From an uncultured Eubacteriaceae bacterium (lineage in GTDB: Bacteria; Bacillota; Clostridia; Eubacteriales; UBA1433), in the NCBI GenBank assembly GCA_964533615.1, contig CAZHMK010000005.1, forward strand, positions 141,218 to 205,217: a DNA stretch of 64,000 nucleotides. The letters run 5' to 3'. Below are positions 3,399-55,745 of the stretch, piece by piece. The notes beneath the pieces were generated by a model. The model was not told where the DNA came from. It was given only the letters and a program-made list of their open reading frames with translations, and ran no database searches. Position 1 is the first letter of the stretch. Each line of letters opens with the position of its first letter. The position numbers and the translations under genes are program-made.

Positions 3399-3660
3399 TT
3401 GGCGGGCGTGGGCAGGATCGTTACCCAAAAACTTCCCTGTCGGATTTTTTTAAATACGTTCAGAAAACGTCCCAAGATTTGCAGAAATATTCACAGTAAT
3501 CTGGTTGGATGGGTATCTTATATATATTATTTATTCTATTTATTCCAACACCCGCCCGGCCGGATCTTTCGACTGCGCTCAAGATGACCTCTTTCATCTT
3601 TATTTTTGTATAAGACAACCGGGGGTATCATTCTGAGCATATCCGCGGAGTTGATTGGAT
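3399..3660. repeat. Dispersed repeat family, cluster 1 (inverted doublet, reverse configuration)
   Basis: Contains a diverged core (ccctgtcggattttt..cgttcagaaaacgtcc). It is followed by ccggatctttcgactgcgctcaagatgacc (3559-3589), a spacer, and the inverted core atcattctgagcatatccgcggag (about 3624-3650). Confidence 0.8.
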
Positions 3661-3987
3661 AACTATTCTGCAAAACAAAATAAACAGGCCAGCATCCACC
3701 CAGTTATAGGGGAGGAGCCCCTCTCCCGCTTTCTTTTTTTGCCTAATAAATAATGAATGCAGGCACGTTGAGGATGACACATCATCCCATGATAGGAGGA
3801 AATTTCGTCATCTAAAGAGGATACTGTGTTTGGGCTGGCCGGCGTACAATATATATTTATAGAAAAAATAAGCGTTTGTTTGATTGATACATGAAGAAGG
3901 TTCTTGAATGAGGAGTATTGCAAAGGGCAGGTGATCCCCTGTGATAAAAAGAAATGTTATAGTTCATCCTTCTTAGTAAAGTATAGT

Positions 3988-4593
3988 TCAGTCAAATATT
4001 GAATAGAGGCGAAAATAGAGAGAGTCGATGGGCGTCGAATTATCATTCAAATAGATATCTACGGTGTAAAATCCTGGATAAGCATCCTCTAAAAGAGCGG
4101 AGGTGAATGTCTTTTCAGTAGTATGGCTGATATCTATTTTATCTTCAAAGATAATTTCATCATCCTGCTCCCACACAAATGTGAGATATGTATTTGCCGT
4201 AGCGTTTCGCACGGTAACAGTTGTGTAGAACTGATCGTATGTCCATTCATAATGATTATCTTTGCTATAGTAGGATTCGTCGTTGTCATCGTGTTTTGCA
4301 TATATTTGCGCATTAGAAACTGAAAAAATATTGTTATTATGAATTTTTACAGCAATCAAGATCGCAATAAAAATAATGACAATGATACCTGCAGCAAGAA
4401 CGATTTTTTTATATTCTCTTTTGTTTTGAATATCCTGCAATTGTTTTTGCTTTGCCGTCTTTTCAAGCTCAATACGCTGAAGCTCTTCATTAGGCAGGGG
4501 CTTTTCCGTGCCACAGTATTCGCATATATATACGCCTTTTGTTTCGTTGACGATCATATCGCCGCCGCATTGACTGCATCTTTCTTCGTTCAA
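3988..4593 (-). CDS. Membrane-anchored protein with N-terminal zinc ribbon
   Basis: Zinc ribbon CSQCGG..CEYCG, then one TM helix. The C-terminal domain is related to that of 6705..7148 (YLTFVWEQ / EITFRWFY; FYTVDIYLND / NYSVEIYING). Confidence 0.7.
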   Translation of the reverse strand: MNEERCSQCGGDMIVNETKGVYICEYCGTEKPLPNEELQRIELEKTAKQKQLQDIQNKREYKKIVLAAGIIVIIFIAILIAVKIHNNNIFSVSNAQIYAKHDDNDESYYSKDNHYEWTYDQFYTTVTVRNATANTYLTFVWEQDDEIIFEDKIDISHTTEKTFTSALLEDAYPGFYTVDIYLNDNSTPIDSLYFRLYSIFD

Positions 4594-4979
4594 ATCTATA
4601 TTCCTCCATTACATCACTGAATAGAACTGACCTCTGCTGTTTTTCAGGCAAACAAAAGCAGGGACTTGTCTACTTGTTTTTATGTTACCATTACTGGATT
4701 GAATTCTGCAAATTTATATCAGATTTTTCAATTCGTCCTGAAATTTAAAATATATCAATATTTTTTATTCATAATCGGATATTTGGAATGAATACGAAAT
4801 ACCACAGTTATATGGTATTGATAATACTTGGTTGTACAATACGTTTGCTTGATAGTGCTTAACTTTTACACTGGTTCATATGGTCTGCGTCCAAGCAGTA
4901 AGCCAAATCAAGCTGGGTTTGCGCTCTGACCCAAAATCTTTGTTTTCTATGTATCTATCCGAACCTCTGTGCACTATTT

Positions 4980-5032
4980 AAGGGGCGGGTCTACTTTTCT
5001 TAGCGCGCCAGCCCCTTTGTATTTTGTTATTT
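4980..5032 (+). terminator. Plus-strand intrinsic-terminator-like hairpin with no upstream plus-strand gene
   Basis: aaggggc..gcccctt GC-rich stem followed by tgtattttgttattt. It lies at the end of a 410-bp ORF-free region. Confidence 0.4.
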
Positions 5033-6212
5033 ATTGAATCTCATTGAGAAAATCGATCATGATCTCAATAAAATCATTTGGTTTTTCCCAATTGAAACTG
5101 TGGCCGGAGTCAACCTCTATGAGCACGTTATTTTCTATCAGCAAATGCGCCCGCTCGGCATCCTCACCGCTCATAGCCCCCATAAGAATACCGTTTTCAT
5201 CATACTTCCAATTTGTATGGATCAGGACGGATGGGCATTTGATCTTCGACAGGGCCTCGGCGTGATCAAAGCCTTTCAGCCATGAGCAATCATAGAATGC
5301 ATCGCCAAATCTGGGATCGTAGTCATTCATGAAATAAAATGTCCCGGTAATGGAAGGTGGGAAGAAAAATATTTTTAATCTCTCTTCGGGATGTTTCTCC
5401 CTGTAGGAGACGGCATATCGAATGATTCTTTTTTTCGCATTTCCAAAATAATTGATCCAATAGCAGTTTTCGAGGTAATACAGAGCAAAGTCATCCTCCT
5501 CATTCTGGTTCAGGAATGAATGACATGCCTGAAATGTGTCCACCTGTGCAAATGTTTTATCGCACCGGGAGGCCTCCGTTGAGAAAAGAGGCGGATCCTC
5601 CAGGACAATACCCAATACATTCTCGGAAGAATTGGCGGCAAGCCATGTCGTCAGCAGCCCCCCGGATGAATGACCCGAGACCACTGCCGGTTCACCAATC
5701 ACATTTTCAATAAACCAGGCAAAATCCTCACCCATTGCCTGGCCGCTATATTTCTCCGGGTCTTTGCTGGATTTCCCATGCCCGTGGCAATCCACCGCAT
5801 ACACGTGATAATATTTCGACAATTCCGGGAGTACCTTCGTATACATTCCCCACGCCGCTACTTGTCCGTGGATCAGCAGGAGGGAAGGACCGTGATTGGG
5901 GCCTTCTACATAATTCAAAACCGTTCCATCGTTTAAAGATACCGGCTTTTCCTCATAACCCGCTTCCATCGTCTGCCGGAATGGAACCTTGTCATAATTC
6001 AGATTGTTATACACATATACGGAAGCGAGCGCGATGACCATACACATCAGGATTACGACCGCTGTCAATATGATTGTCAAGTTGTTATACACGGAAGCGA
6101 GCACGATGACCACACATATCAGGATTGCAACCGCTATCAATACTGTTTTCAAGATTTTTTTCTTTTTCTTTTTTGGCTTAATACTGTTTGTGCCGGAAAA
6201 TTCTTTTTTCAT
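5031..6212 (-). CDS. Alpha/beta hydrolase with N-terminal membrane anchor
   Basis: LLLIHGQ, nucleophile elbow GHSSGG and C-terminal DSGH. The N-terminus is Lys-rich with a duplicated TM helix. Overlaps the upstream AbrB-type gene by 4 nt. Confidence 0.85.
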   Translation of the reverse strand: MKKEFSGTNSIKPKKKKKKILKTVLIAVAILICVVIVLASVYNNLTIILTAVVILMCMVIALASVYVYNNLNYDKVPFRQTMEAGYEEKPVSLNDGTVLNYVEGPNHGPSLLLIHGQVAAWGMYTKVLPELSKYYHVYAVDCHGHGKSSKDPEKYSGQAMGEDFAWFIENVIGEPAVVSGHSSGGLLTTWLAANSSENVLGIVLEDPPLFSTEASRCDKTFAQVDTFQACHSFLNQNEEDDFALYYLENCYWINYFGNAKKRIIRYAVSYREKHPEERLKIFFFPPSITGTFYFMNDYDPRFGDAFYDCSWLKGFDHAEALSKIKCPSVLIHTNWKYDENGILMGAMSGEDAERAHLLIENNVLIEVDSGHSFNWEKPNDFIEIMIDFLNEIQ

Positions 6213-7394: not shown

Positions 7395-7525
7395 GAGCTG
7401 ATCTGTTTATTTTGCAGAAAAGCCATACCTGCCAGATTCTTCGACTGTGATCAGAATGACACCGCCCAAGATTTGCAGGCTGGCTCGCAGTAAGGCTGCT
7501 TGGATGTCTATTTAGAATGACACCG
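7395..7525 (+). repeat. Dispersed repeat family, cluster 2
   Basis: cctgccagattcttcgactgtgatcagaatgacac (7429-7463) followed by two diverged or partial cores. Confidence 0.8.
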
Positions 7526-9858: not shown

Positions 9859-10371
9859 CTAATCTCTGTTAAACACCAGCTCCAAGTCTATAATCTCACC
9901 TTTTGAACTTGTCAGTTGTGTATTGATACGCTCTGTAGCGCCGCCGTCGTAGGTGAACTGAATAAAATAATAAGGTTCGATCAGATCAATATATTGCTGC
10001 GGTGAACAGTCCATAATATATTTATTATTTTCATCGAATAAAGACATATAGCCTGTGTTTTGATTTTGACTGCATTCACATGAATTAGAACCCCAATTGA
10101 TTTGTGTGATTCGCAGATTCTCTATATCTTCCTCTCCGATATACTTAATCTCATAACGCGTTGCCATTTGTAATTTTTCATCACCGAAAGTGATGCCTTT
10201 CGGTACTTTGGGGCTGCCGTCGTACTCAAGCTGTACACGAACATTGACTTCATAGTTTTCATTCCCGCCTGCATAATTGCGGTAGACGGATACTGTTTTC
10301 CCGCATGATGTAAAGCTGAGAAGTAACAAGCAAAGGAACAGACACAGTAAAAAAATTTTTATTTGTTTCAA
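9859..10371 (-). CDS. Lipoprotein, family member 1
   Basis: Signal peptide with lipobox LSFTSC. Tandem paralog of 10387..10911. Confidence 0.8.
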   Translation of the reverse strand: MKQIKIFLLCLFLCLLLLSFTSCGKTVSVYRNYAGGNENYEVNVRVQLEYDGSPKVPKGITFGDEKLQMATRYEIKYIGEEDIENLRITQINWGSNSCECSQNQNTGYMSLFDENNKYIMDCSPQQYIDLIEPYYFIQFTYDGGATERINTQLTSSKGEIIDLELVFNRD

Positions 10372-10386
10372 TAGGATGCGGCCTCC

Positions 10387-10911
10387 TTAGTTTTGAGTAG
10401 TTTTTTCTGTAAACACTAAATCTAAGTCTGTAAGCTCGCCTTTTGAACTTGTCAGTTGTGTATTGATACGCTCTGTAGTGCCGTCGGCGTAGGTGAATTG
10501 CACGTAATACGCATGCTCGGTGATATCAATTGTTTGCATTGAATCTTTTGTGCTGTATTTATTATCTTCATCAAATAAATTCATATAGCCGCCGATTTGG
10601 TTTTGACTGAGCAAATAGTATTTATTCCCCCATTCTACTCCGGTAATTTGCAGATTTTCCACATCTTTTGTGCCGATATACGTGATATCATAATACATCA
10701 TAGTCGTTAAATTCTCATCATCATACATCAGGCCTTTCGGCACTTTGGAACTGCCGTCGTATTCAAACTGTATACGGACACTGACTTTATAGTTTTCATT
10801 CTCGCCTGCGTAATTGCGGTAGACGGATACTGTATTTTTACAAGAAGTAAAGCTGAGAAGCAAAGCAGACAGGAATAAAAATAACAGTAGTTTTTTTGCT
10901 TGTTTTAACAT
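10387..10911 (-). CDS. Lipoprotein, family member 2
   Basis: Signal peptide with lipobox LSFTSC. Shares VSVYRNYAG.NENY, LFDE.NKY and ERINTQLTSSKGE with its neighbour. Confidence 0.8.
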   Translation of the reverse strand: MLKQAKKLLLFLFLSALLLSFTSCKNTVSVYRNYAGENENYKVSVRIQFEYDGSSKVPKGLMYDDENLTTMMYYDITYIGTKDVENLQITGVEWGNKYYLLSQNQIGGYMNLFDEDNKYSTKDSMQTIDITEHAYYVQFTYADGTTERINTQLTSSKGELTDLDLVFTEKTTQN

Positions 10912-14689: not shown

Positions 14690-15065
14690 GAGGGGCTGTG
14701 ATATATTTTATAAGCAAAACCATTCCGCCGGATTCGCAGGCGTGCTCAGAATGACGGTGTTAGGTTTTACGATATGTATTGTTAAGAAGATCAAAAGAAT
14801 AATTTGCCAAAGCTTGTTTGCATTACAGAGTATGTGCCGTTCATTGCCGGATTTACAAATGATGTTTGCAAGGATGTTATTCTTATTTTTCAATTCCTTT
14901 TTTCAATACTTTAAACTCATCCCCTTTCCTCCATCCAACCGGATCTTTCGACTGCGCTCAAGATGACCCTGCTGTTTTCTGTTTTATATGGTTGATATGA
15001 TGATCATCATTGAGAAAGCCCGCCTTATCAGATTCGCAGGCTGCGCTCAGAATGATACTGCCTTG
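14690..15065 (+). repeat. Dispersed repeat family, cluster 3
   Basis: Cores at about 14721-14757 (gattcgcaggcgtgctcagaatgac), 14936-14969 (ccggatctttcgactgcgctcaagatgacc) and 15019-15058. Confidence 0.8.
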
Positions 15066-21949: not shown

Positions 21950-22560
21950 TGTTTTTTCTTCAGAAAATTTGCCCTGCCGGAAGAGCAGGCACGTTTAGCA
22001 TGATATCTGTTCAGTTTGTAAAAAGAAAGTGAGTCTATTGGCTATTGAGAGGAGGGTGTTGTAAGGGCGGGTGAACGCAGGAAAGCTCCTATGATTGCAT
22101 GTAAAGCTGGAGAATGATTGATTATTTGAAGAAAAGCCCTTCGCAGGATCTGTAGGCACGCTCAGAATGATACCATTTTGTTTTTCAAAGAGTGGGTGAA
22201 CGTAGTTCGGGTGTTTGGATTGGTTTAATATGCATTATAAAAAGGAAGGCAGTCGGTTTTTAGATAAAAAATAATTACCGGGGATGAGAGCGGGTTGATA
22301 ATTTATGAAAAGAAATCCAATTTTCCAGATTCTTGGACACGTTCAGAATGACACCATACTATCTGTCGAGGAGCGTGCGAATCCCGGTGAGGGGGTTTGG
22401 ATTGGGGCTAATATGTATTATGTATCGGGTAGTTTGATGATTTTATAAGAAGACACTCCACCCTGCCGAATTCTCAGACCGGCTTAAAATGACGCTGCCT
22501 CTTGATTTATATTAAACAGACAGAAGAGAGTCATCTTAAGATTTACGCGAGGAGCGGGTA
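21950..22560 (+). repeat. Dispersed repeat family, cluster 4 (diverged ~180-bp modules)
   Basis: Cores at about 21971-22007, 22137-22173, 22321-22354 and 22459-22496. The flanks are conserved (..atttgaagaaaagccc.. / ..ggtttggattgg..taatatg.attat..). Confidence 0.75.
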
Positions 22561-32285: not shown

Positions 32286-33284
32286 ATGAAAAGAATTTTG
32301 ATCATATTATTTTGCGGATTGCTGTGTATGCTGCCGACAGCAACTGTGTTTGCCGCGCCCGGCGGAGAGTACAGCATTGATGAACTGAAAATGAAGGTGC
32401 AAATACCAACGGACTGGGTGGTATTCACACCTGATACGAATGATGATGATACGGATCTGGCATATTACGGATTTAGCAGCGCGCAGGAAATGAAAGAGGA
32501 GCTGTTTTATGGCACTGATCTGTATTTATCTGCGTATTATGATATTTTTATAACAGGGGTGATGAGCTTTGAGGATGAATACAGCGAAGAGATCGGCTAC
32601 CTTGCCCAGATGGATTCGCTGTATGAAAATTTGTTCATGCTCGGAGCGCAGTTTGCGGAAGGCATGGCGGAAGACGGCTGGGAATACAGCGACTTTGAGC
32701 TCTACGAAAATGAAGAAAATGTGTATCTCAAATGGGATATGAGCATGGACAGTGACGACTTTATTTGCTATGGCGTAGGGTATATGACCATTATGAACGG
32801 AAAATATATCGCGTGTTTTTACTCAAAGTTTGATGAATTGATAGAGCCCGACAGGCAAAAATTTCAGGAAATGGTCGATCAGGTAACGTATACGGAGGAT
32901 GCTTTTACGGCTGCGAGCCAGAGTGTAAGCAGTGATGAGGGCGAACTGACAAATGAAATCGCCGGGGTGCTTACGGACAATAAAGACTTGATCAGCAAAA
33001 TGGCACTCATTGCGGTGGCGTGTTTTGCTGTTATTGCCGGAATCATTATTTTATTTATTGCAATGAGTAAAAGCAAGAAAAAGAAGACGGCGACTGTTAG
33101 AAGACAGCTTGCACAAACGCAAGAGGTTACTTACACGGCGGCGGCAGATAAAACAGAATACAATGCAAGAAGCAAAGATGACGAAAATACGCAACGCAAT
33201 TTGGTTATCTGTGATTACTGCAAAAAGGCGGTGCCTTCAGAGAGCACAGTCTGCCCCGTATGCGGAGAAAAGCTGAAAAAATAA
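32286..33284 (+). CDS. Secreted/membrane-anchored protein with C-terminal zinc ribbon, paralog 1
   Basis: Signal peptide, acidic ectodomain, TM helix, and a Lys-rich tail ending in CDYCKKAVPSESTVCPVCGEKL. Confidence 0.75.
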   Translation: MKRILIILFCGLLCMLPTATVFAAPGGEYSIDELKMKVQIPTDWVVFTPDTNDDDTDLAYYGFSSAQEMKEELFYGTDLYLSAYYDIFITGVMSFEDEYSEEIGYLAQMDSLYENLFMLGAQFAEGMAEDGWEYSDFELYENEENVYLKWDMSMDSDDFICYGVGYMTIMNGKYIACFYSKFDELIEPDRQKFQEMVDQVTYTEDAFTAASQSVSSDEGELTNEIAGVLTDNKDLISKMALIAVACFAVIAGIIILFIAMSKSKKKKTATVRRQLAQTQEVTYTAAADKTEYNARSKDDENTQRNLVICDYCKKAVPSESTVCPVCGEKLKK

Positions 33285-33308
33285 AGTACTTGTCGGAAAG
33301 GATACATC

Positions 33309-34292
33309 ATGAAAAAAGGTCTTACGGCGTTACTGATATTAATATTATTCATGACTCCATCGGCAGGAGTGCTGGCCGCATCCGGTGGAGAAGTTTATAT
33401 CGAAGAATTTGATATGACCGTTGATTTGGCGCAGGAGTGGACGGTCTTTACGCAAGAGACGGCGGATGACGATGAAGATGTGTATGATTACGGATATGAA
33501 AGCGCTCAGGAAGTTAGAGATTATTGCATTGAAAATGACGTCGGGATACTAGCTTACTACGGTCATTATTTTTATATTGTTGCTTCAAGAAAAGATGATT
33601 TCAGTGAGTATATTTACTCTCTGGCAGATATGGATGCAGATATTCTGGAAGATATGAAAAACGCCATAGAAACTTTAGGGGAGTATAATAAGGATAATTC
33701 AGAGATAAGTCAATCAGAAATATACCAAAATGACAATAACGCATACATACGTTTGGATATAGATAACAATAGTGAAAACATATATTGCATTATTTATATA
33801 ACAATTATTAAAGGAAAGTATGTAGAAAATTATTTAATGTCGGATAAGTATTTTTCAGATATAGAAAAAAAGCAATTTGAAACAATGATAGACAGCATCA
33901 CATACGGAAATGATATGTATGCTCTTGCGGATGAAAGCACAAGCGGCGAAGAGGGGGAACTCACCAATGAAGATGACGGGGCACTTACGGATCATAAAAA
34001 CTTGACTGGTAAAATGGCGTTCATTGCGGCGGTGTGTTTTGCGGTCATTGCCGGGGTAATCATTTTTGTGATGATTAAGAGTAAAAAGAAAACAAAGACA
34101 GAAGCGATGCAGCAGTTTGCCGAGATAGAGAAAACATTTCAGGACAGAATGGACGAAGCATTGAACGCTCCCAAACCGGAAAAAAAAGAAAAGGCAAAAC
34201 AAAGTATGATGATCTGTGAGTACTGCAAAAAGGCGGTGCCTTCAGAGAGCGCAGTCTGCCCCGTATGCGGAGAAAAGCTGAAAAAATCTTAA
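33309..34292 (+). CDS. Secreted/membrane-anchored protein with C-terminal zinc ribbon, paralog 2
   Basis: Same architecture as paralog 1. The 3' 67 nt are nearly identical to those of paralog 1. Confidence 0.75.
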   Translation: MKKGLTALLILILFMTPSAGVLAASGGEVYIEEFDMTVDLAQEWTVFTQETADDDEDVYDYGYESAQEVRDYCIENDVGILAYYGHYFYIVASRKDDFSEYIYSLADMDADILEDMKNAIETLGEYNKDNSEISQSEIYQNDNNAYIRLDIDNNSENIYCIIYITIIKGKYVENYLMSDKYFSDIEKKQFETMIDSITYGNDMYALADESTSGEEGELTNEDDGALTDHKNLTGKMAFIAAVCFAVIAGVIIFVMIKSKKKTKTEAMQQFAEIEKTFQDRMDEALNAPKPEKKEKAKQSMMICEYCKKAVPSESAVCPVCGEKLKKS

Positions 34293-35002: not shown

Positions 35003-35827
35003 TTATACAGGATTTAAATTCGGAGAATAGAACATTACTTCTGTTCCTTTGTAAGAGGTATTCGCACTGTATTTAATAGTATATTCTCTACTTATATAAT
35101 CTTGATAAATTTGTTTTATTTCATCAACGTTATCATATGTTACTATCCATTTATGATTAAGTTTTGCTATTTCTTTTGCTAATGTAATATGATTATTTGT
35201 ATCATAATAATTCGTATATAGTTCTTTGCCCTTATAAAAATAAGGTGGATCTAAAAAAATAAATATATTATTATGATTGTCTAATTGATGAAAGAATTCA
35301 ATTGCATCTAAATTGTAAAAATGTATTTTGTCTTTATAACTATCAATTAAATTTAATTTTTGCAGTATACTTTTTTTGTTAAATCTACAATTTAATTTAT
35401 AATTCCCGTTTTGATTGTATCCACCAATAGGCCCAGCAGTTATTATACCTGAATGATTCGTTCTATTCAGAAATAATGTTGAAAAAGCTAATTCAAATAA
35501 CTCGGCTGTGCTTTTGTTATTTTGAATTTCTTTTTGTTTATACCATTCATTAATAGTTATGTCCGTTGAAATTATTTTTTCACATAGTTTGTCATTATTT
35601 GTTAACACTGTATTCCAAAAAGCATAGATACTTCTGTCAATATCATTAAGAATGATATTGTCTACAACTTCATTATTTAACAATGCCAGGGCTAAACCGC
35701 TCCCACCTGCATATGGCTCAACATATGTACATCCTAATAAATTATTTTTTTCAATTAGACTTTGTGTATAATTATATAATTGTGTTTTGCCACCAGGGTA
35801 TCTTAATGGCGATAATGTTATAGGCAT
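35003..35827 (-). CDS. Dam-class (D12) N6-adenine DNA methyltransferase
   Basis: LRYPGGK, EPYAGGSG (AdoMet motif) and FLDPPY (catalytic motif IV). RBS aaggag. Confidence 0.9.
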   Translation of the reverse strand: MPITLSPLRYPGGKTQLYNYTQSLIEKNNLLGCTYVEPYAGGSGLALALLNNEVVDNIILNDIDRSIYAFWNTVLTNNDKLCEKIISTDITINEWYKQKEIQNNKSTAELFELAFSTLFLNRTNHSGIITAGPIGGYNQNGNYKLNCRFNKKSILQKLNLIDSYKDKIHFYNLDAIEFFHQLDNHNNIFIFLDPPYFYKGKELYTNYYDTNNHITLAKEIAKLNHKWIVTYDNVDEIKQIYQDYISREYTIKYSANTSYKGTEVMFYSPNLNPV

Positions 35828-35886
35828 ATTAAGCTCCTTAATATAAATGTTAGTATAAAAATTTTATTATCATTAAATATTTCAAT

Positions 35887-37242
35887 TTATTTTGACCAGA
35901 GAATAGTAATTAAATTAGAAAAATTATCCCAAGTCAGCAATAAATCTTTTGGGATAGGATTAAAATTTTTGTTATGTACATATGAATTGAAAGTTCGCAT
36001 TGAGAAAATACTATTTTTGTTGGAAATGGCAATATCCATTGGTTTTATTGCATCATTGGTTAATGATTGTTTTCCTTTAACATCATTTATCACTTTTGAA
36101 AATTTATTTCTTAAGTTGTCATCTATAGAATAATTAATATTATTTATATCTAAATAATGTTCTATCGATAATTCAATAAAAACCCTAAGTAAAACAGCCA
36201 CAGCATTTGAATATTTTTCGATTTCCATACTTCTAAGCTCGAAATATATATTATTTAATCTATTATCTGTAATGCTCAATTTATAATTTGCCGGAATCAA
36301 TGTATTGCGTTCATACGAAGGTTTAATATTCCGTTTATGCATAATTTTGGAAGTATCAGTTATCTTTTTATCAGCACTTTCTTCTAATACAGGTGTTACA
36401 TTATTCATACTTTTTTCAAATGGCAATACTTGATTAGATTGTAAATTTGTATTTTCAATTGTTTTAGCCTGCAAATTAGATTTAGCAGAAAGATTATGTA
36501 TGAATTCTTCTATGGCAGGATTATCATAAACAATTTTAACAGTTTTACCTTTTAACTCATCTGCAATAGTTTTAATTTTTGATGCAAATTCTTTTTCATC
36601 ATTAATAATTAATTGACCATTTTTATAATCAAATTTAGCAAAATTTTGAGTAATTGGTCTGGTTAAAATTCTCTCCCAATTAGTTCTTGTAACTGAATTG
36701 ATTTCATTAGAAGTTAAATATTTATTTTTTTCTAAAAAATTTAGTGTGTTTTGCAAAGGTGTATTATGGCCTCTTAAATACTTAAATCGATCCTTTTGAG
36801 TCGAACCCCAAGTAATTAAACCTCGGCCGCTGTCTTCGCCAATATGCCTTCGCTCTAAAAAAATCATAAGCTGTTCTATTTCATTTTCTTTAAAAATAAA
36901 GGCAGGAATTTCATTTCCATAAGATATATCAGACAAACTTAAAGAGGAAAATTTTCTAAAATATTTTTTATTAGTTTTTATTAAATCAGGATTTGATAAT
37001 ATTTTTAACGCAGTAATTCTTCTATTGCCATCATAAACAGTGAGTTTATTATTATATTTATATACAGCAATCGTTTCTATTATTCCATTTTTGCATATAT
37101 CTTCAGCTAATTTATATATTTTATCGGGCAATGTTTCAATCATTTTTTCTATAGATAATTTTTCGTTATCTAAGGGTTCAAACCTAGGATTTTCATTCCA
37201 AAGATATAAGTCACTAAGTTTTATATAATCAAGTTCAGGCAT
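35887..37242 (-). CDS. ParB/Srx-fold N-terminal domain protein with unassigned ~300-aa C-terminal region
   Basis: LWNENPRF and VYDGNRRITALK are ParB-type motifs. The C-terminal helical region carries MRTFNSYVH (R-x6-H). RBS ggagg. Confidence 0.7.
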   Translation of the reverse strand: MPELDYIKLSDLYLWNENPRFEPLDNEKLSIEKMIETLPDKIYKLAEDICKNGIIETIAVYKYNNKLTVYDGNRRITALKILSNPDLIKTNKKYFRKFSSLSLSDISYGNEIPAFIFKENEIEQLMIFLERRHIGEDSGRGLITWGSTQKDRFKYLRGHNTPLQNTLNFLEKNKYLTSNEINSVTRTNWERILTRPITQNFAKFDYKNGQLIINDEKEFASKIKTIADELKGKTVKIVYDNPAIEEFIHNLSAKSNLQAKTIENTNLQSNQVLPFEKSMNNVTPVLEESADKKITDTSKIMHKRNIKPSYERNTLIPANYKLSITDNRLNNIYFELRSMEIEKYSNAVAVLLRVFIELSIEHYLDINNINYSIDDNLRNKFSKVINDVKGKQSLTNDAIKPMDIAISNKNSIFSMRTFNSYVHNKNFNPIPKDLLLTWDNFSNLITILWSK

Positions 37243-37299
37243 ATTTACCTCCGCATTGATATATTTAATTATAGCAAAAAAGTATTAGTTAATCGATAT

Positions 37300-39054
37300 T
37301 TAAAATAGAAGGTTTAATTTTCTATTTTCATTGTCTGTTGTTAAAGCAAGCATGGATATTAATTCTATATTTTGATTTTCGAAATTGTTTCGTTGGGGTC
37401 TATATGTTAAATCTTCGTCTGAGATAGATTCAATTAAATAATGAGGAGCCAAAGCATTATATGATATAAGAAATTCAGAATTAAAATTAAAAATTTCTTC
37501 GGTTCGTTCATTTAATATGTACTTAAAAATATTATGATTAGTATCAATATAAAAATATTTATAGTAATTATTAAACCATTCTTTTTGTTTTTTTCTTGAT
37601 CTTGTTGGGTATGGATTACAAGAACTTATAAAATGATCTTTTGTGTAAGTATTATATCGATTTAATGTCCAAAACTCGTGCTCATCTTCTAAATTATCTA
37701 AAAATTGATAAATGTATTTTTCTGGATTTAAATTGCTAGGTAAAAAAGTAATATTTTCAGGGAAGTCAGTTTTATTATAAGACCTCATTAATTTTTTCAA
37801 ATTATCACGTGCATCACCATCTAATAAAAGTATTGATGTATTTATCTCTTCAATACTTTCATTCAAAAATAATCGAATTAATTCATTACATCCTAATTCA
37901 GTTACTTTAATATATATATTATTTATAAAAATAGGGGCTAAAAGATTTAATGCTATTATTTGCGCTTCATTATCTTCGACAAATACTTTAATTTTCGGGA
38001 GTTCTTGGCTTATTAAGTTTAAATGATTTTTAATAGATAAAAAAGGTGGATTAGATTCAGATGTTATTTTTGTTGAATTTTTTCTTAAATAAATTATTTC
38101 AATATTATCATGAGTTTTTTTATCTTTTATAGAATTTTGTCGCATTTGATAGCTTTCTTCAATAATATGTGTAGAGTGAGTAGTAATGATAAATTGAATG
38201 TTATCTTTTGATGCAATTCGATTTAAAAAATTTATTAAATTTTTTTGTACTGGAGGATGAAGTGATGACTCTATTTCATCTATTACGAATACGGCTCCTT
38301 TATAATCGGTTCCTTGTTTTGATTTTACTCTTCTAATAGATAAAATCATTAGTAGTATTTTTCCTATTACATCTTCGCCAGATGACATAGATCTATAATC
38401 TCTATTCTCAAAAATTATATTAGCGGTATATTTAATACTAGATTTTAATGAGGATATCTTTTTAATATGTTCTCGTTTTAATAATATTTCATTATACCAA
38501 TTATGATATAAATTTAATTCTTTTTCATCAAGTTGAATTTCGGAAATTTTTATGCTTTTATCATCTATTTTTGATAAAGGAAATAATCTGTCTAAATACA
38601 ATGCCGCAACTGGTATGTCTTTTATGAAACCGCTACCTTTTGTTCTGGTTTCAGTCCAAACTCTTAGTTTTTTTGCTGATGAGTCTTTTCTTAATTCAGA
38701 TTTATAGGTATAAAAACCATTTTCGTTTATTTCAGTATTTAAAAAATTAATTTTTGCCCATAAACAATCTTCTTTATCATATTCTGGGTATGCTAATTTT
38801 ATGTTTTTTTCAAATTTTCCTTCTAAATATTGTCCATCGATGCTTATATAAGTTTTAGGTGGATATTTTTGATTTGCACTTTTCCTCGAATTATTAAATG
38901 GTTGTATGAGTAAACCTAGTATTGTAGATTTCATAGTACCATTATAGCCAGAGATTATAGTAATATTCTGGCCTAAAGTTATTTCAAAATTTTTTAAATC
39001 TCTAAAATTTGCTTCCAAACTTTTGATTATCATAAAAATTCCTATCGCTTTCAT
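37300..39054 (-). CDS. OLD-family-like protein: ABC/SMC-type ATPase plus C-terminal Toprim/DUF4435-like module
   Basis: P-loop ISGYNGTMKST, Walker B VFVIDEIESSLHP and IITTHSTH. The C-terminus has KVFVEDNEAQ and ILLLDGDARD acidic motifs. The alternative start Met 39033 fits family N-termini (MIIKSLEANFRDL). Confidence 0.65.
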   Translation of the reverse strand: MKAIGIFMIIKSLEANFRDLKNFEITLGQNITIISGYNGTMKSTILGLLIQPFNNSRKSANQKYPPKTYISIDGQYLEGKFEKNIKLAYPEYDKEDCLWAKINFLNTEINENGFYTYKSELRKDSSAKKLRVWTETRTKGSGFIKDIPVAALYLDRLFPLSKIDDKSIKISEIQLDEKELNLYHNWYNEILLKREHIKKISSLKSSIKYTANIIFENRDYRSMSSGEDVIGKILLMILSIRRVKSKQGTDYKGAVFVIDEIESSLHPPVQKNLINFLNRIASKDNIQFIITTHSTHIIEESYQMRQNSIKDKKTHDNIEIIYLRKNSTKITSESNPPFLSIKNHLNLISQELPKIKVFVEDNEAQIIALNLLAPIFINNIYIKVTELGCNELIRLFLNESIEEINTSILLLDGDARDNLKKLMRSYNKTDFPENITFLPSNLNPEKYIYQFLDNLEDEHEFWTLNRYNTYTKDHFISSCNPYPTRSRKKQKEWFNNYYKYFYIDTNHNIFKYILNERTEEIFNFNSEFLISYNALAPHYLIESISDEDLTYRPQRNNFENQNIELISMLALTTDNENRKLNLLF

Positions 39055-40229: not shown

Positions 40230-40510
40230 GATAAAAAAACAAAAGGGGTCATCTTGAGTGCAGTCGAAAGATCCGGCGGGTTGGGGTTGGTATGAGTATT
40301 TTGTGAAGAAGATAATCTGCCCCGCCAGATTCTTCGACTATGCTCAGAATGACACCAAGGTTCGGGTGGTGATGTTGGTCTGCACATACTATATAAGATA
40401 GCCGTCCCGCCAGATTCTTCGACACGCTCAGAATGACACAGGCCCATCAGATTCGCAGGCACGCTCAGAATGACACCGTCCCCAAGGTTCGGCTGGCAGA
40501 GGTTTTATCC
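40230..40510 (+). repeat. Dispersed repeat family, cluster 5
   Basis: Inverted variant ggtcatcttgagtgcagtcgaaagatccgg (40246-40277), then cores at 40318-40354, 40404-40439 and 40442-40476. Confidence 0.85.
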
Positions 40511-41574: not shown

Positions 41575-41845
41575 GCCTAATTATTATTGCGAGAGAGTCT
41601 GCCCCGCCAGATTCACAGGCACGCTAGTGACACCAGCCCCAGGGTTTGGTAGGTGCTGGGTCTGTTTGAATTGCAGAATACACCTACTCCTACCAGATTC
41701 TTCGACACGCTCAGAATGACACTGCCCCATCAGATTCTTCGACTATGCTCAGAATGACACCGCTTCATCAGATTCGCAGGCACGCTCGCAGTGACGCCAG
41801 CCTCTTGTATGATAAAAATAGAGAAAGTCGTCTTGAACGAGGGCT
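41575..41845 (+). repeat. Dispersed repeat family, cluster 6
   Basis: Cores at 41600-41633, 41688-41722, 41724-41760 and 41763-41797, plus a degenerate inverted unit reaching the stop codon of 41844..42500. Confidence 0.85.
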
Positions 41846-42539: not shown

Positions 42540-43052
42540 TCATTCATGATAGTAATCATTTTGCCACTGCAATGGATTTGAATGAATATATTCCTTGATT
42601 TTATCATAATCTTTCTGACCACGGATAATATGGTCATGAAAAGAACGCTGCCATAACGGTCGACCATATTGCTTAGAGGTGATGGTTTTGAATGAATTTA
42701 TTATTTTAGATATGGAGATTGTAGGGGACGCCGCCCACGGCGTCCCGTCTTTTTGTAATAAAATAATCATATGAATATGATTAGGCATAATAACATATGC
42801 ATCAACAGACACATGTTTATATACATCAGGGATGTTTAATACTATTTTTTGAACCATCTCACCGGTAGGGCTCAATATGATCTGCGGGAGGCTGTAGGCA
42901 GCCTCTCCTACGTTTTCTTGAGCGAGATATCCTTCATCCCATAAAATTGCTTGTCTATCTTTGGTGCAGATGGTTATAAAATAGGCACCATTGCTGCTGT
43001 AGTCGTAATCGTGCAAGCGGTTGGCTTTTCGGGTAGGTTGTTTATTTAACAT
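42540..43052 (-). CDS. IS200/RAYT-like Y1 (HUH) transposase-family protein
   Basis: YFITICTKDR, the HUH motif in YVIMPNHIHMIIL, WQRSFHDHIIR and EYIHSNPLQW. 170 aa. Repeat arrays lie on both flanks. Confidence 0.8.
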   Translation of the reverse strand: MLNKQPTRKANRLHDYDYSSNGAYFITICTKDRQAILWDEGYLAQENVGEAAYSLPQIILSPTGEMVQKIVLNIPDVYKHVSVDAYVIMPNHIHMIILLQKDGTPWAASPTISISKIINSFKTITSKQYGRPLWQRSFHDHIIRGQKDYDKIKEYIHSNPLQWQNDYYHE

Positions 43053-43194: not shown

Positions 43195-43812
43195 TATTTT
43201 TCACGCCAGATTGGCAGGCATGCTCGCAGTGATGCTCGTCTCGTGTGTTGGCGTTTGTATGTCGATTTTGTAAAAAGGATGCGAGAGAGCGGGAGGCTGA
43301 GGGCAGCCTCCCCTACGGTTATGTATTCCATTTGATATTTGATTTGGTAAATGGCAAGATTTATAAGCATGTTGGTCTGATTATTTTATAGAGAATACCC
43401 ACCTTGCCAGATTGGCAGGCATGCTCGCAGTGACACAAACCCCTTGTTTGATAAAAACGAGAGGGGTCATCTTGAGCGCAGTCGAAAGATCCGGTGGGTT
43501 GGGGATGGTATGAATATTTTATGAAGAAGATAATCTGCCCCGCCAGATTCTTCGACACGCTCAGAATGACACTGCTCCCAGGGTCCGGTTGGAGTTGGTC
43601 TGCTTGAATTGCAGGATACACCCACTCCCATCAGATTCTTCGATACACTCAGAATGACATTGCGCCGCCAGATTGGCAGGCATGCTCAGAATGACACCGA
43701 CCCATCAGATTCTTCGACTATGCTCAGAATGACACTGCCATTCAAGGTTCGGGGGGCGTTGGTATGAATATTTTATGAAGAAGATATCTACCCCATCAGA
43801 TTCTTCGATATA
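43195..43812 (+). repeat. Dispersed repeat family, cluster 7 (about 8 cores including one inverted doublet)
   Basis: Cores at 43201-43234, 43398-43436, inverted 43463-43494, 43536-43572, 43626-43660, 43663-43697 and 43700-43736, plus a truncated one at 43790-43810. Confidence 0.9.
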
Positions 43813-48359: not shown

Positions 48360-48578
48360 GGAAATGCAGGAATGGAAAGTTGTTTGATCTCCAAGCGGTA
48401 CGGCAGATGATTTTATATAGACCTATGTTTTATTGTTTAATGGAAGAAGAATTACAAATCATTGTATACGGACTGCCGTCATTGATTATACTCATTGTTT
48501 TAGTCCATGCTTTACGCAAAGGCAGGAAAAGCAAATGAGTATAAATATACTTTAAAATAATAAATATTTGAGGTAAAC

Positions 48579-49163
48579 ATGAAAAAAAAATTAATATTTA
48601 TTTATATTTGTATTATTGCCATAAGTATTTTCGCATCATGTGGCAGTCATTTATCTTATGAACAAATTGTTAGAGTTGTTATAAAGAATCAAGCATTGCT
48701 TAATCAAGTACCTGATGAAATAAAAAAATATAATGAACCATATGTTTCCATGACTAAAAAAAGACCTGTAGAAAACGCAATATCAGTACCAGTCCCAAAG
48801 GACATAGATGGACTGTATATTATTGAACACATAGATAAGAATTATAAAATTTCAAATATAGAGAATGATATATTTAAAAAAGTATTAAATATAAAAGGTA
48901 TAATTGATATTGCATTTTATGATATCAGTGAAAAAGGACGGTTCTCTGTTTTTTTCAGCTGCGGTGGAGAAGGTATTGGAAGTGCGATGAGTGAATATGG
49001 GTTTTATTATACGGAAGATAATAAGCCGATAGGTGACGATGGAGCTGATTATGAGTTTATGCAAAGTGAAGAAGGCTGGATCTGGACGGAAGAGGACTCG
49101 GATAACGAATACTATACTCAAAGAATAACAGATAACTGGTTTTATTATGAATGTTCGTGGTAA
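48579..49163 (+). CDS. Hypothetical lipoprotein
   Basis: Signal peptide with lipobox IFASC. AT-rich gene. Confidence 0.65.
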   Translation: MKKKLIFIYICIIAISIFASCGSHLSYEQIVRVVIKNQALLNQVPDEIKKYNEPYVSMTKKRPVENAISVPVPKDIDGLYIIEHIDKNYKISNIENDIFKKVLNIKGIIDIAFYDISEKGRFSVFFSCGGEGIGSAMSEYGFYYTEDNKPIGDDGADYEFMQSEEGWIWTEEDSDNEYYTQRITDNWFYYECSW

Positions 49164-49343
49164 TTGATATGTATAATTTAACTAATTTTAAAAAATTAAA
49201 TTGGCAGATTCATTAGAGAATATAGAGTCACTGATGTATACTTGCTGAGGCGTGATGATCAGGTATCAGCCTAACGTATTCACAGTCAAGCTTGAAATAC
49301 TTATTAACATGAGCTCGGGCAGTGAACGTTTATCAAAGTTTAA

Positions 49344-49577: not shown

Positions 49578-49904
49578 AAAGTTCAACCGCTTTCCTTGTT
49601 CCGAATACGGAACATTTTTATTGATTATATAGAATAATCGTATTATAATTGCTCTGATATTGGAGCAAAAGAATGATATTTCATGCCGAATTACAAACAA
49701 ATGTATTTTATACTTTTCAACGCGGTCGTAAACGCAATTGATCAATTAGAAAATGCCCAACAAAAGAGCGAGGATATATACATTGAGAGTGATGATATAC
49801 CGTTGATTTTTTTGCCCGAGATGGCAAAGGAAGTGCAGGACATCGAGCAAGGGTTTATTGATTAGAAGGATGTTGAAAAAGCGGGTGAGCGATGCGTGCG
49901 GGTG

Positions 49905-50700
49905 GTTTGCTATGCATAATTTTATATAAGATACCTGTCCCGCCAGATTCTTCGACTGCGCTCAGAATGACACCGTCCCCAGGTTTTTGATGATGTTCAG
50001 AATGACACCGTCCCCAGGGTTTGATTGGTGTTGGTCTGTTTGAATTACAGGATATACCTGCCCCGCCAGATTCTTCGACACGCTCAGAATGACGCTGCCC
50101 CCAGGGGACGGTTGGTGTTACTCTGTTTGAATTACAGGATACACCTGCCCCGCCAGATTCTTCGACTACGCTCAGAATGACATCCACCCGTGTTTAACGT
50201 GAGGATGGTTGAATAATTTTATATAAGATACCTGCCCCGCCAGATTCGCAGACACGCTCGGAGTGACACTGCCCCTGGAGTTCGGCTGATGTAGGTCTGA
50301 TTATTATTGCGAGAAAGCCTGCCCGTCGGATTCGCAGGCTGACACAAGTCTCTTGTCTGATATAAAAAAGAACGAAAAGGGGTTATCTTGAGCAGGGTCA
50401 AAAGATCCGGTGGGTTAGGGATTAGGCATAAGAAAGTAAGAAAGATTGAATGTGGGTTGGATCGATGTGCAAAATTTGATACATTAGAGAGCAGTTTGAT
50501 AATTTTATATGAAATACCTGCCCTGCCAGATTCTTCGACGCGCTCAGAATGACACCGGTCTCAGGGTTCGGTTGGAGTTGGTCTGTTTAAATTACAGAAT
50601 ACACCTACTCCCGACAAGATTCTTCGACTACGCTCAGAATGACACCGTCCCCCGGGTTTTTGATGATGTTCAGAATGACACCTGCCTCAGGGCTCGTATT
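49905..50700 (+). repeat. Dispersed repeat family, cluster 8 (largest, about 11 cores)
   Basis: Cores at 49936-49972, 49984-50008, 50058-50094, 50146-50181, 50232-50269, 50318-50345, inverted 50378-50410, 50518-50554, 50607-50645 and 50655-50680. The array ends about 20 nt before the GtrA stop codon. Confidence 0.9.
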
Positions 50701-50718
50701 TATACGATATGGGGTGGT

Positions 50719-51192
50719 TTATTGCGAAAGGTCGTCGAGTAGATCGGGGGAATGATTTTTTTGCGCGTATTTGCCGGTGTTGATGGAATTGCGGTAGACG
50801 ACGAGGCGGTAGAACAAAAATTCCGTTGTGAGGTTGATAAGCATGGTGCCGCCGAAAACGATGTACTCGTTCCAGCCGATGTTCGTGAGGGCTTCGCCCC
50901 ACCAAGTGGAAAGCGGCGTGAAGATGAGATAATAAAACGCCACCTGGAGCATGGCTTTGGGGATATTGGCCGCCGATTTGAATGTGAATCTTCTGTTGAC
51001 CGTGAAATTATAGAGCACCGAGAGCGTGAGCGCAATGAGATAACACGGCCAGTAGGGTAATAACGTGAGCTCATTGAGCAAAGTGAAACTGGCTGCCTGA
51101 AGAATACCGGCCGATGCCGAAAACGCAGTGAATTTTATAAATTGCAGGATGTTTTGTTTTGCGGTAAGGGTAGTATTTGTTTTTGTTTTCAT
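50719..51192 (-). CDS. GtrA family membrane protein
   Basis: 4-TM protein with FIKFTAFSASAGILQ and the VNRRFTFKS motif. Confidence 0.8.
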   Translation of the reverse strand: MKTKTNTTLTAKQNILQFIKFTAFSASAGILQAASFTLLNELTLLPYWPCYLIALTLSVLYNFTVNRRFTFKSAANIPKAMLQVAFYYLIFTPLSTWWGEALTNIGWNEYIVFGGTMLINLTTEFLFYRLVVYRNSINTGKYAQKNHSPDLLDDLSQ

Positions 51193-53937: not shown

Positions 53938-53944
53938 GGCAAGG

Positions 53945-54410
53945 GTAGTCTTGCATGAGTGGGAGGTCTTTTGCATATTGAAAGAAGGGTATTGGAGAGG
54001 GGCATGATGATTTGAAGAGAGAAAAATCGTCCCCGCCAGATTCTTCGACTACGCTCAGAATGACACTGCCCCCTGGGTTTGGTTGGCGTTGGTCTGTTTG
54101 AATTATAGGATATGCCTAGTCCCGCCAGATTCTTCGACTACGCTCAGAGTGACACTGCCCCAGTTTTTTGATGATGTTTAGAATGACACCTGCCCAGGGT
54201 TCGGCCGGTGTGGGTCTGATTATTATTGCGAGAAAGTCTGCCCGTCGGATTCGCAGGCACGCTCAGAATGACATCCACCCGTGTTTAATGCATGCAAGGT
54301 TGATTTAAAAATTTTATATAAAATATTTACCCTGCCAGATTCTTCGATATACTCACAGTGACACCTGCCCTCGATTTTTTGATGATGTTCAGAATGATAG
54401 CTGCCAGTGG
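53945..54410 (+). repeat. Dispersed repeat family, cluster 9
   Basis: Cores at 54029-54066, 54119-54155, 54162-54189, 54237-54273, 54329-54364 and 54373-54400. Confidence 0.9.
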
Positions 54411-54557
54411 AAGGGAGTTGTAAGAGAGGACGAGCAATGCTGAGGCAGGTGTTAGTCTGATATATATCAGATAAGATACTTGTGCAGTCAGGTGCGGCGA
54501 ACGAAAGAGGGGGTGGTATTTAAAGTATGATATGGTATAGTAGGGATAACATTCGCA

Positions 54558-55298
54558 ATGTATATGAGGTATGAAATGGAACGTTTATATATTCGGCAGT
54601 TGAAAATCGGCGGCCTTGATGAAAGCGCATATACCGCGCATCTGCCTGTTATGCGGTGGCTGATCGAAGCGGGAGAGTTCGCCTTTGAAAAACAAGTGAC
54701 ATTTTTTATTGGTGAGAACGGAACGGGAAAATCCACGCTCATAGAAGCCATAGCCCTTTGCGCCGGATTTAACGCGGAAGGAGGCTCGAAGAATTTTAAC
54801 TTTTCTACAAAGCAAACCTCTTCTGATGTATATAAATCCATTACGCTCGTAAAAGCGGCATATGAAAAAGACGGTTTTTTTCTGCGAGCGGAAAGCTTTT
54901 ATAATGTCGCCACACAGGTAGACGAGCTGGAACTGAGCTTAGAAGGATACGGAGGATGCTCGCTGCATGAGCAATCCCACGGTGAGAGTTTTATGGCGCT
55001 GGTTCAAAACCGTTTCAGAGGGGAAGGACTTTATATTTTGGACGAGCCCGAAGCGGCCTTATCACCGTCGCGGCAAATGGCGCTGCTTGCGGAGATGAAA
55101 AGACTTGCGGATGAAGATTCCCAGTTTATCATTGCGACGCATTCGCCGATTTTGCTCGCTTATCCCGGTGCCGATATTTATCAGATCAGTGAGGACGGTA
55201 TTGAGAAGGTGGCTTACCGGGAGTGTGAACACTACAGGCTCACAAGGGATTTTTTGAATCAGCCCGAGCGAATGATGCATTATTTGTTTCATGAATAA
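54558..55298 (+). CDS. Stand-alone ABC/SMC-like AAA ATPase (~245 aa family)
   Basis: FFIGENGTGKSTLIEAI, HEQSHGESF, LYILDEPEAALSP and IIATHSPILL. Confidence 0.75.
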   Translation: MYMRYEMERLYIRQLKIGGLDESAYTAHLPVMRWLIEAGEFAFEKQVTFFIGENGTGKSTLIEAIALCAGFNAEGGSKNFNFSTKQTSSDVYKSITLVKAAYEKDGFFLRAESFYNVATQVDELELSLEGYGGCSLHEQSHGESFMALVQNRFRGEGLYILDEPEAALSPSRQMALLAEMKRLADEDSQFIIATHSPILLAYPGADIYQISEDGIEKVAYRECEHYRLTRDFLNQPERMMHYLFHE

Positions 55299-55299
55299 T

Positions 55300-55745
55300 G
55301 CGAAAGTCTTCTACATATTGAGAGAAGAGTGTTGGAGGGGGTATGATGACGTGAAGAAAAACCGTCCCCGACAGATTCTTCGACACGCTCAGAATGACAC
55401 CTGCCTCTTGTCTGATATAAAAAAAATGAGGGGGTCATCTTGAGCAGAGTCGAAAGATCCGGTTGGATAAGGATGGGGTGTGAGAGAGCGGGAAAGATCG
55501 GGGTGTAGGCTGGACTGATATGCAGAAGCTGATGTGTTCGAGGATGGAGAAGGGTATAATTATTTGAAGAAGAAAAACCGTCCCCGACAGATTCTTCGAC
55601 ACGCTCAGAATGACACTGCCCCCTGGGTTCGGTTGGTGTTGGTCTGTTTGAATTACAGGATATGCCTAGTCCCGCCAGATTCTTCGATACACTCACAGTG
55701 ACACTGCCCCCGGTTTTTTGATGATGTTCAGAATGATAGCTGCCC
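55300..55745 (+). repeat. Dispersed repeat family, cluster 10
   Basis: Cores at 55364-55400, inverted 55432-55462, 55579-55616, 55669-55705 and 55712-55738. Confidence 0.9.

Follow-up and report, generated by a model that had tools for sequence, protein, structure and literature searches.

The stretch of DNA analysed here, a 64,000-nt piece of contig CAZHMK010000005.1 from an uncultured Eubacteriaceae bacterium (referred to as the window), carries repeated units of ~30 nt between its genes, each able to fold into a hairpin when the nucleic acid is single-stranded. These repeats are elements of the repetitive extragenic palindrome (REP) type, which form mosaics like those of bacterial interspersed mosaic elements (BIMEs) and neisserial intergenic mosaic elements (NIMEs) in at least 12 intergenic sites over ~63 kb, and a gene for a putative REP-associated tyrosine transposase (RAYT) lies amid the densest clusters. 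A unit in + sense reads ..CAGATTCTTCGAC-N2-3-GCTCAGAATGACA on the + strand, so that its tag strand, 5'-TGTCATTCTGAGCG.., is on the - strand. One variant form of the unit, GTCATCTTGAGCGCAGTCGAAAGATCC, has the stem ATCTT/AAGAT. A unit profile built from both forms was run over the window and the 8.6 kb past its end with a cut-off of E<1e-3. The repeat clusters, the RAYT gene and two further hairpins are located as follows:

3557..3641, - strand: cluster 1, the sole inverted cluster; a variant unit in + sense (3557-3589) and a weak ATTCT-type unit in - sense (3628-3641, E=0.03)
7429..7525, + strand: cluster 2; one good unit and one or two degenerate ones, + sense throughout, flanked by divergent genes
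14725..15057, + strand: cluster 3; three units, all in + sense, the middle one (14936-14971) being the ATCTT/AAGAT variant
22143..22493, + strand: cluster 4; three degenerate + sense units between divergent genes
40245..40478, + strand: cluster 5; an opposite-strand variant (40245-40279), then three + sense units
41604..41787, + strand: cluster 6; two intact and two degenerate units, all in + sense
42540..43052, - strand: RAYT gene, 170 aa, a predicted Y1/HUH transposase of TnpA_Y1 class 2, amid the densest clusters
42886..42911, - strand: GTAG-tagged REP hairpin GTAGGAGAGGCTGCCTACAGCCTCCC, in frame within the RAYT gene, encoding VGEAAYSLP
43207..43808, + strand: cluster 7; ~7 + sense units and a doublet-forming variant on the opposite strand (43463-43497), directly upstream of RAYT
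43291..43316, - strand: canonical GTAG-tagged REP hairpin GTAGGGGAGGCTGCCCTCAGCCTCCC, embedded in cluster 7, ~240 nt before the start of the RAYT gene
49940..50682, + strand: cluster 8, the largest array; ~9 + sense units in ~87-nt head-to-tail modules and an opposite-strand variant (50379-50413)
54032..54397, + strand: cluster 9; four or five + sense units between two + strand genes
55368..55737, + strand: cluster 10; three or four + sense units and an opposite-strand variant (55432-55465), between two + strand genes

The arrays were found to share one orientation. Searching for the 14-mer GCTCAGAATGACAC with up to two mismatches gave 30 matches in the window (28 on the + strand, 2 on the - strand), where 0.25 would be expected by chance, and the variant sequence ATCTTGAGCGCAGTCGAAAGATCC occurred five times in the window, three times on the + and twice on the - strand. 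The profile census yielded 38 units at E<1e-3, 33 of them in + sense and 5 in the opposite sense. The clusters are positioned at 3.56, 7.4, 14.7-15.1, 22.1-22.5, 40.2-40.5, 41.6-41.8, 43.2-43.8, 49.9-50.7, 54.0-54.4 and 55.4-55.7 kb; an extra cluster lies just past the window end at ~66.1-66.5 kb (window-equivalent) and a lone weak variant-like unit at ~9.65 kb, and the 8.4 kb preceding the window yielded no units. Because units within a cluster are tandem copies and not independent, the cluster count is the fair statistic: one sense was common to 11 of the 12 clusters (two-sided binomial p=0.006, calculated post hoc). Thus, the co-orientation over more than 50 kb that had been claimed in a sequence-only reading of the window was borne out, extending over ~63 kb. 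The same reading held that the orientation disregards neighbouring genes, and this was also confirmed. The genes flanking the clusters are both on the - strand at five clusters, both on the + strand at two, divergent at three and convergent at one, and since these directions are mixed, cluster orientation is independent of the neighbouring genes and of transcription; a correlation with local transcription was not seen.

The opposite-sense units start at 40245, 43463, 50379, 55432 and 66286 (the last a window-equivalent coordinate), and all five are of the ATCTT/AAGAT variant. Four of them follow a + sense unit, or the remnant of one, at a distance of ~30 nt and so form inverted doublets, whereas the unit at 40245 has no upstream partner. 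The earlier description of the opposite-sense units as the variant, occurring as second half of inverted doublets, therefore applies to all five with respect to the variant and to four with respect to the doublet. In turn, the variant is not always the opposite-sense form, as it occurs in the majority sense at 3557-3589 and 14936-14971. Cluster 1 (3557-3641), alone in being inverted, mirrors the usual doublet.

On the tag strand the unit follows the pattern 5'-TGTC-A-NNNN-GAGC-N3-4-GTCGA-NNNN-T-C, in which the N4 blocks with the flanking A and T are complementary; its layout is an unpaired 5' tag (TGTC), a 5-bp covarying stem and a conserved loop. The stem was assessed on all sequences that match the conserved loop within ~1.1 Mb, taken from loci of many taxa. 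All five pairs of the arms were of the Watson-Crick type in 114 of 214 unique units preceded by GTC, compared to 12 of 1620 untagged matches, with the stem flavours ATTCT/AGAAT, ATCCT/AGGAT, ACCCT/AGGGT, ATGCT/AGCAT, ATCTT/AAGAT, ATGGT/ACCAT and others. An alignment of 79 units picked irrespective of their 3' arm displayed both-sided changes in four of the five stem pairs. Altogether, 48 cells with both-sided pair changes were counted versus 12.6 +/- 3.5 in shuffles, none of 500 shuffles reached 48, and slid controls were all lower. These compensatory changes demonstrate that the hairpin of the repeat unit is under selection. Single mismatches of the G.T and A.C type were equally frequent (7:7) and hence uninformative on which strand folds.

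Within the window, the unit is embedded in a module of ~87 nt, composed of a G-rich, an AT-rich and a C-rich stretch, the unit and a second C-rich stretch, which repeats head to tail. A conserved spacer of ~55 nt joins the units in head-to-tail arrays and in a few inverted doublets. Modules are shared between clusters, 129 nt occurring in six copies in clusters 8, 9 and 10, and 104 nt at 93% identity in clusters 5 and 7. Rfam returned no match at the gathering score for the window and none at E up to 10 for 49850-50750, a scan for transfer RNAs found none, and BLAST searches of plasmid and phage collections with a two-unit query gave no match. The literature searched by the DNA core and by peptides from spurious repeat open reading frames contained nothing relevant, and a promoter/terminator scan of 39.5-56.5 kb gave only weak matches within the arrays. 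Hammerhead, k-turn, CsrA-site, parS and CIRCE-like operator were dropped as candidates by sequence inspection, as key positions misfit.

The arrays are still changing. The window corresponds to the reverse of 256,925-320,924 in a 419.6-kb JGI metagenome contig (3300037528, Ga0334897_000009), and the same strain is present in other assemblies. Array length changes between strains: at cluster 9 (54032-54397), the L001 and L002 assemblies differ by exactly 89 bp, equivalent to one repeat module gained or lost. A relative with 88-95% identity, the GTDB metagenome-assembled genome (MAG) CAZOOZ01 ("uncultured Eubacteriaceae"), possesses clusters at the same sites and in the same sense, with arrays rearranged relative to the window, and one more co-oriented cluster ~18 kb further on (L028). 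A complete metagenome scan for the lineage-specific core, which degenerate copies would escape, identified 29 loci. Those belonging to this lineage all fall in the region of the window, indicating that intact copies are concentrated here; the one other match from the same sample (L137) is of unconfirmed origin.

The RAYT gene is present in one copy in the 81 kb examined, and its product contains the motifs NHIH (HuH), WQ and YIHSNP with the catalytic Tyr. The protein matched Pfam PF01797 (Y1_Tnp) above cutoff (E=4e-7) and NCBIfam NF047646 (REP-associated tyrosine transposase) below cutoff (E=2.5e-20, 72.9 bits, cutoff 80). Its best PDB match is 4ER8, E. coli TnpArep, and an identical protein is labelled RayT by JGI. 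Judged from its sequence, it belongs to class 2 of Quentin et al. (2018, PMC6006769), with subclasses 2.4 and 2.6 being the nearest. An IS200/IS605 element or a gene-less derivative thereof (palindrome-associated transposable element, PATE) was ruled out, since YIHSNP is of class 2 and the score with NF033573 (IS200) was 27 bits versus a cutoff of 55.

In addition, the gene has REPs of its own, namely the two GTAG-tagged hairpins within and upstream of it; no GTAG REP was found downstream of the gene, so that it is flanked by REPs on one side only. REPs within the gene are a hallmark of TnpA_Y1 subclass 2.4 (PMC6006769). As VGEAAxxLP is the majority sequence at the in-gene REP position among ten aligned members of the RAYT family, the in-gene hairpin and the protein segment appear to be the same sequence. 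The free upstream copy would translate to VGEAALSLP. GTAG hairpins also flank the RAYT homologues of two other Clostridia, where TGTC-type doublets occur nearby at low density, and the repeat motif of the window is not listed in the supplementary tables of PMC6006769. The region thus resembles a REPtron, holding a RAYT together with the REPs that belong to it, while the arrays around them are of another REP type. In a related strain (L136, Ga0334887_1028798), the RAYT gene is 86% identical and lies within the stretch equivalent to 48360-49313, in opposite orientation. RAYT genes are usually described as immobile. Another homologue, with 50% identity, was noticed in Ruminococcus flavefaciens (JHXF01000001.1; L160, 10001-10519) within the row dnaA-dnaN-S4-recF-remA-like-[RAYT]-gyrB-gyrA, an origin-region row with almost no intergenic space and an odd site for a relative of transposases.

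Compared by text description, the units of the window agree with most features of the CGTC-tagged REPs (Di Nocera, De Gregorio & Rocco, 2013, PMC3733652). These have an unpaired CGTC tag, often TGTC, a stem of 8-9 bp starting with A-T and then T-A, a loop of 4-5 nt and a tail that is mostly CCA. Head-to-head dimers are the rule, head-to-tail arrangements are negligible, clusters are rare and inverted dimers have unlike partners; the superfamily includes Neisseria dRS3 and Rickettsia RPE-4/-6, and Clostridia are not among the five phyla named there. The 4 nt preceding the stem were TGTC in 118, CGTC in 9 and GGTC in 6 of 188 units with at least four of five paired positions in the arms, and the tag of the window units is TGTC or GGTC. 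Screening one genome per species for TTCGAC-N2-3-GCTCAGAATGACAC yielded at least 117 loci, with further copies possible in the relative's genome. The matches listed included Clostridia, Bacteroidota, Chloroflexi, Acidobacteria, Verrucomicrobia, Ignavibacteria, candidate-phyla-radiation groups, Latescibacterota, Armatimonadetes, Eremiobacterota, Gemmatimonadota, Myxococcales, Treponemataceae, Parcubacteria, Saccharibacteria, Peribacteria and others. The unit family therefore occurs in well over a dozen phyla, far past the five named in 2013. At 146 loci of other taxa, the only protein families recurring beside the repeats were common transporters.

The units are arranged in various ways in these other lineages. 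Head-to-head heterodimers occur in some (L124, L161), and head-to-tail arrays also in Ignavibacteria and others. In Stygiobacter electus (L052, 3916-4081) and an Ignavibacteria MAG (L038, 2637-2685), the head-to-tail arrays are tight, with a period of 24-25 nt, each unit's 5' stem half being the end of the preceding unit; unit arrays with a period of 30-40 nt were seen at L122, L123, L125, L140 and L150. Seven loci of other Clostridia (L020, L023, L079, L100, L013, L022 and L075) have a GC-rich hairpin that separates the loop (TTCGAC) from the 5' stem half (GATTC), which suggests a nested insertion of one repeat type into another. At L130 (350-1117) and L103, other widespread repeat types stand beside TGTC units, one of the type CTTTGCGAGGA[GA]CGAGCCGT..GTGACGTGGCAATCTC and also GTAGGGGCGACCATTGGTCGTCC, a GTAG-type hairpin; several hairpin families thus co-occur in these genomes.

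With respect to replication, the + strand of the window is G-rich in 25 of 32 2-kb intervals and also in both flanks (8.4 kb upstream and 8.6 kb downstream). As the + strand is G-rich throughout, the whole region, ~81 kb altogether, is on one replichore, and the + strand is most likely the leading strand. The contig of the relative displays the same relation between array sense and G-rich strand, and so does L137, the organism of which is unconfirmed. A coupling of Y1 transposition to the lagging strand is summarized in PMC6006769. In Pseudomonas fluorescens SBW25, five tandem REP arrays are in forward orientation at ~2 Mbp and six in reverse orientation at ~4 Mbp, each ~2 Mbp from the origin (Bertels & Rainey, 2011, PMC3116915).

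Based on these observations, we propose, with a probability of roughly 45%, that strand-specific seeding together with local growth explains the co-oriented arrays. New clusters would be seeded by a strand-specific process acting on single-stranded DNA at the replication fork, possibly by Y1/HUH-type cleavage and rejoining through this RAYT or another enzyme in trans. At least 12 sites with unrelated flanking genes are occupied, each of which therefore needed its own seeding event, and every such event would occur in the same sense because the whole region is on one replichore. Each seed may then have grown in place by slippage or unequal exchange, which would add only co-oriented copies, and the pattern is probably strengthened by selection that removes inversions arising between long inverted arrays. 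Neither gene conversion nor slippage is able to set orientation, and a strand-specific process at the fork, which is how Y1/HUH enzymes act (PMC6006769), would be the simplest known way to obtain seeds of the same sense on one replichore. The sequence-only reading had already noted that HUH/Y1 transposition would give such a shared orientation, as would replication-oriented architectural motifs. The presence in the region of a RAYT with its own GTAG REPs makes this idea plausible, and the position of the gene amid the arrays, the single replichore and the SBW25 precedent speak for it, but the units lack a GT[AG]G foot and other lineages are unpolarised, so that the interpretation is supported only in part.

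Several results weigh against the proposed seeding. In other lineages, the array sense agreed with the local GC skew in 69 of 113 cases overall and in 22 of 43 with |skew| >=0.06, neighbouring clusters within one locus were tallied as same or opposite at roughly 9:13, and in Clostridia no link of orientation to gene-strand bias was found; these proxies are noisy, most loci being <=8 kb, and the loci are the matches listed. A replication-oriented chromosomal motif such as Chi or KOPS would switch its preferred strand at ori and ter; across the other taxa, the units showed no link to strong local skew. The results argue against a replication polarity of the CGTC/TGTC-type family as a whole, and the mixed orientation elsewhere indicates that co-orientation is a feature of the arrays of this lineage, not of the family. 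With regard to the enzyme, the abundant units are without the GT[AG]G foot known to be read by class 2 RAYTs, and the GTAG REP is present in just two copies in the 64-kb window. CGTC-type REPs are reported to be linked to no transposase gene (PMC3733652), and tblastn over ~985 kb around the listed matches of other taxa identified an adjacent RAYT homologue once in an independent lineage (L103). In the related strain L136 (equivalent to 47.9-49.8 kb of the window), RAYT is not at 42.5-43.05 kb, while the arrays are unchanged in orientation. The predicted DNA folding of single units is weak (-4.0 and -1.1 kcal/mol for the two strands) and indistinguishable from that of shuffles. Finally, if replication uses the + strand as the leading strand, the lagging-strand template would not be the tag strand, contrary to what the simplest IS608-like model predicts, except where activity resides in the complementary strand. 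A more far-reaching but rather improbable reading is that the CGTC/TGTC REPs, spread over many phyla and orphans lacking a transposase since 2013, are mobilised and amplified strand-specifically by a class 2 RAYT which has GTAG REPs of its own as well; the region would then be an active 'mixed REPtron' with head-to-tail arrays growing on one fork strand.

The main rival is selection alone, according to which units insert in either sense and inverted arrays (100-400 bp, 65-93% identical and tens of kb apart) promote harmful inversions within the replichore, leaving only long arrays that are co-oriented. This is compatible with the long modules common to clusters (129 nt in six copies, 104 nt at 93% identity), with the sole inverted cluster (3557-3641) being the smallest and most degenerate one and lacking a long module, and with the tolerance of short (~35 nt) opposite-sense variant units. 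Neighbour orientation is random in other lineages, whose clusters consist for the most part of single units or short arrays, and the region is recombinationally active between relatives, which also fits selection. However, no inversion between arrays was detected among the strains compared, in which only the RAYT gene differs in locus and orientation. In addition, direct repeats promote deletions, which should be selected against too, and selection leaves the seeding of new sites unexplained. We consider selection alone rather unlikely, although it is not mutually exclusive with strand-specific seeding. Less likely still is a historical accident by which a few founder clusters of one sense were spread through recombination or gene conversion, the ratio of 11:1 then representing few events. 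At least 12 intergenic sites with unrelated flanking genes would each have needed an insertion of their own, orientation cannot be set by gene conversion, and the binomial p is 0.006; on the other hand, the metagenome scan recovered exact copies of the lineage-specific core almost nowhere outside this region, the 104-nt and 129-nt modules are shared by clusters 5 and 7 and by clusters 8, 9 and 10, respectively, and the orientation statistic is post hoc.

A role of the units in RNA, as 3' stabilisers, terminators or protein-binding hairpins with a sense that follows mis-called transcription units, was prompted by the five clusters located between two - strand genes and by a terminator-like hairpin directly after the core in several Clostridia; moreover, REPs are described in PMC3733652 as often being downstream of genes and possibly transcribed. 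The same sense is, however, also present at the two clusters between + genes and the three between divergent genes. Across taxa, the flanking genes relative to the unit sense were (+,+) in 24 cases, (-,-) in 26, convergent in 15 and divergent in 11, and Rfam gave no match even at E up to 10, rendering an RNA function very improbable. Co-oriented imperfect palindromes between short accessory genes are also reminiscent of an integron-like cassette array, in which co-oriented recombination sites separate mobile gene cassettes; the gene content varies between relatives and one indel junction adjoins cluster 2. This is hardly credible and already largely refuted, as no integrase or site-specific recombinase domain is encoded by any gene of the window or flanks, the sites are tandem arrays and not single, the genes between them point both ways, and clusters do not border the largest indel (56.8-63.4 kb).

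This 6.6-kb segment (56799-63368) is absent from a close relative (L084) and is not bounded by repeats. It contains an FtsX/MacB permease, a two-component system, two TnpV fragments at ~62.9-63.3 kb and pieces of an ABC ATPase over two or three short open reading frames, probably a pseudogene, and looks like a decayed inserted element. At 35003-39054, a D12-class methyltransferase is located beside a 451-aa unknown and an AAA_21/AAA_15 ATPase, and a second AAA_21 ATPase is found at 54576-55298. Just upstream of the window (L156, 1-4064) lies a set of Z1, NgoFVII-like endonuclease and C5 methylase, and several Xre-type regulators and a MazE are present as well. The 35003-39054 segment and the L156 region have the character of a defence or accessory island. 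Two tandem paralogous gene pairs (9859-10911 and 32286-34292), which are 76-88% identical at the DNA level over 100-200 nt, have no relation to the repeat clusters; a zinc-ribbon motif forms the end of the pair at 32286-34292.

REP elements belong to the most frequent repeats of bacteria, and no enzyme has ever been linked to their CGTC/TGTC-tagged type. REP/BIME arrays, RAYTs with in-gene REPs, CGTC-tagged REPs and co-oriented tandem REP arrays have each been described already. New is their combination, that is, CGTC/TGTC-type units in Clostridia, long head-to-tail arrays, co-orientation of 11 of 12 clusters over ~63 kb, and a RAYT among them. The region unites co-oriented, still-changing CGTC/TGTC-type arrays with a RAYT in their midst and with close relatives for comparison, which makes the question of their mover testable and offers a concrete place to determine what moves this orphan REP family. 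If the RAYT does not cut these hairpins and the orientation does not flip across the origin, the region would represent further BIME-like clutter in an accessory-gene island.

Among known systems, NIMEs, consisting of dRS3 and RS arrays, similarly alternate a CGTC-type hairpin with conserved spacer modules; their sequences, however, are unrelated to those of the window apart from the tag and the ATTC..GAAT stem ends. The units have in common with the CGTC/TGTC-tagged REPs (PMC3733652) the unpaired 5' tag, that the first stem pair is A-T and the second mostly T-A, and that they occur in many phyla, form inverted heterodimers of two stem flavours and have no regularly adjacent transposase. Loop and 3' tail are short as well, but the lengths of stem and loop, the tail and the dimer type differ. 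The units have five Watson-Crick pairs and a conserved GA..GA/GC core in place of a perfect stem of 8-9 bp: stem positions 6-9 are the conserved GA/GC..GTC/GA core, which could pair only as G.A, A.G and G-C and would then leave a loop of 3-4 nt. The tails are CTG(G) and CCG(G), C-initial and alike in length, instead of CCA, and head-to-tail arrays and tail-to-tail doublets are found in the window where head-to-head dimers are the rule. The clostridial host and the RAYT gene amid the arrays are further differences.

The RAYT and its surroundings correspond to REP/BIME systems with RAYT (REPtrons; E. coli K-12, TnpA_Y1 class 2, PMC6006769) in the putative class 2 Y1/HUH gene (HuH, WQ, Y...NP), the GT[AG]G-footed hairpin at less than 1 kb together with an in-frame one as in subclass 2.4, and the intergenic hairpin mosaics. 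In contrast to these, the abundant repeats around the gene are of the TGTC type and not GTAG, which has two copies in 64 kb, and the gene is flanked by REPs on one side only. Members of the IS200/IS605 family (IS608, ISDra2) likewise use Y1/HUH hairpin recognition, and a strand-specific single-strand mechanism would co-orient insertions within a replichore (PMC6006769). The transposase of the window is, however, of class 2 (Y...NP) and not of the IS200 type (Y...Q), and, as far as can be judged from the sequence, there are no left and right ends enclosing the gene and no tnpB, the units being single hairpins in arrays or doublets. A parallel to the orientation itself may be drawn to the tandem REP arrays of SBW25 (PMC3116915). 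Those are GTAG-type and gammaproteobacterial with a cognate RAYT, whereas here one region of one replichore is seen; both systems consist of evenly spaced head-to-tail arrays at several sites, with one orientation per genome region.

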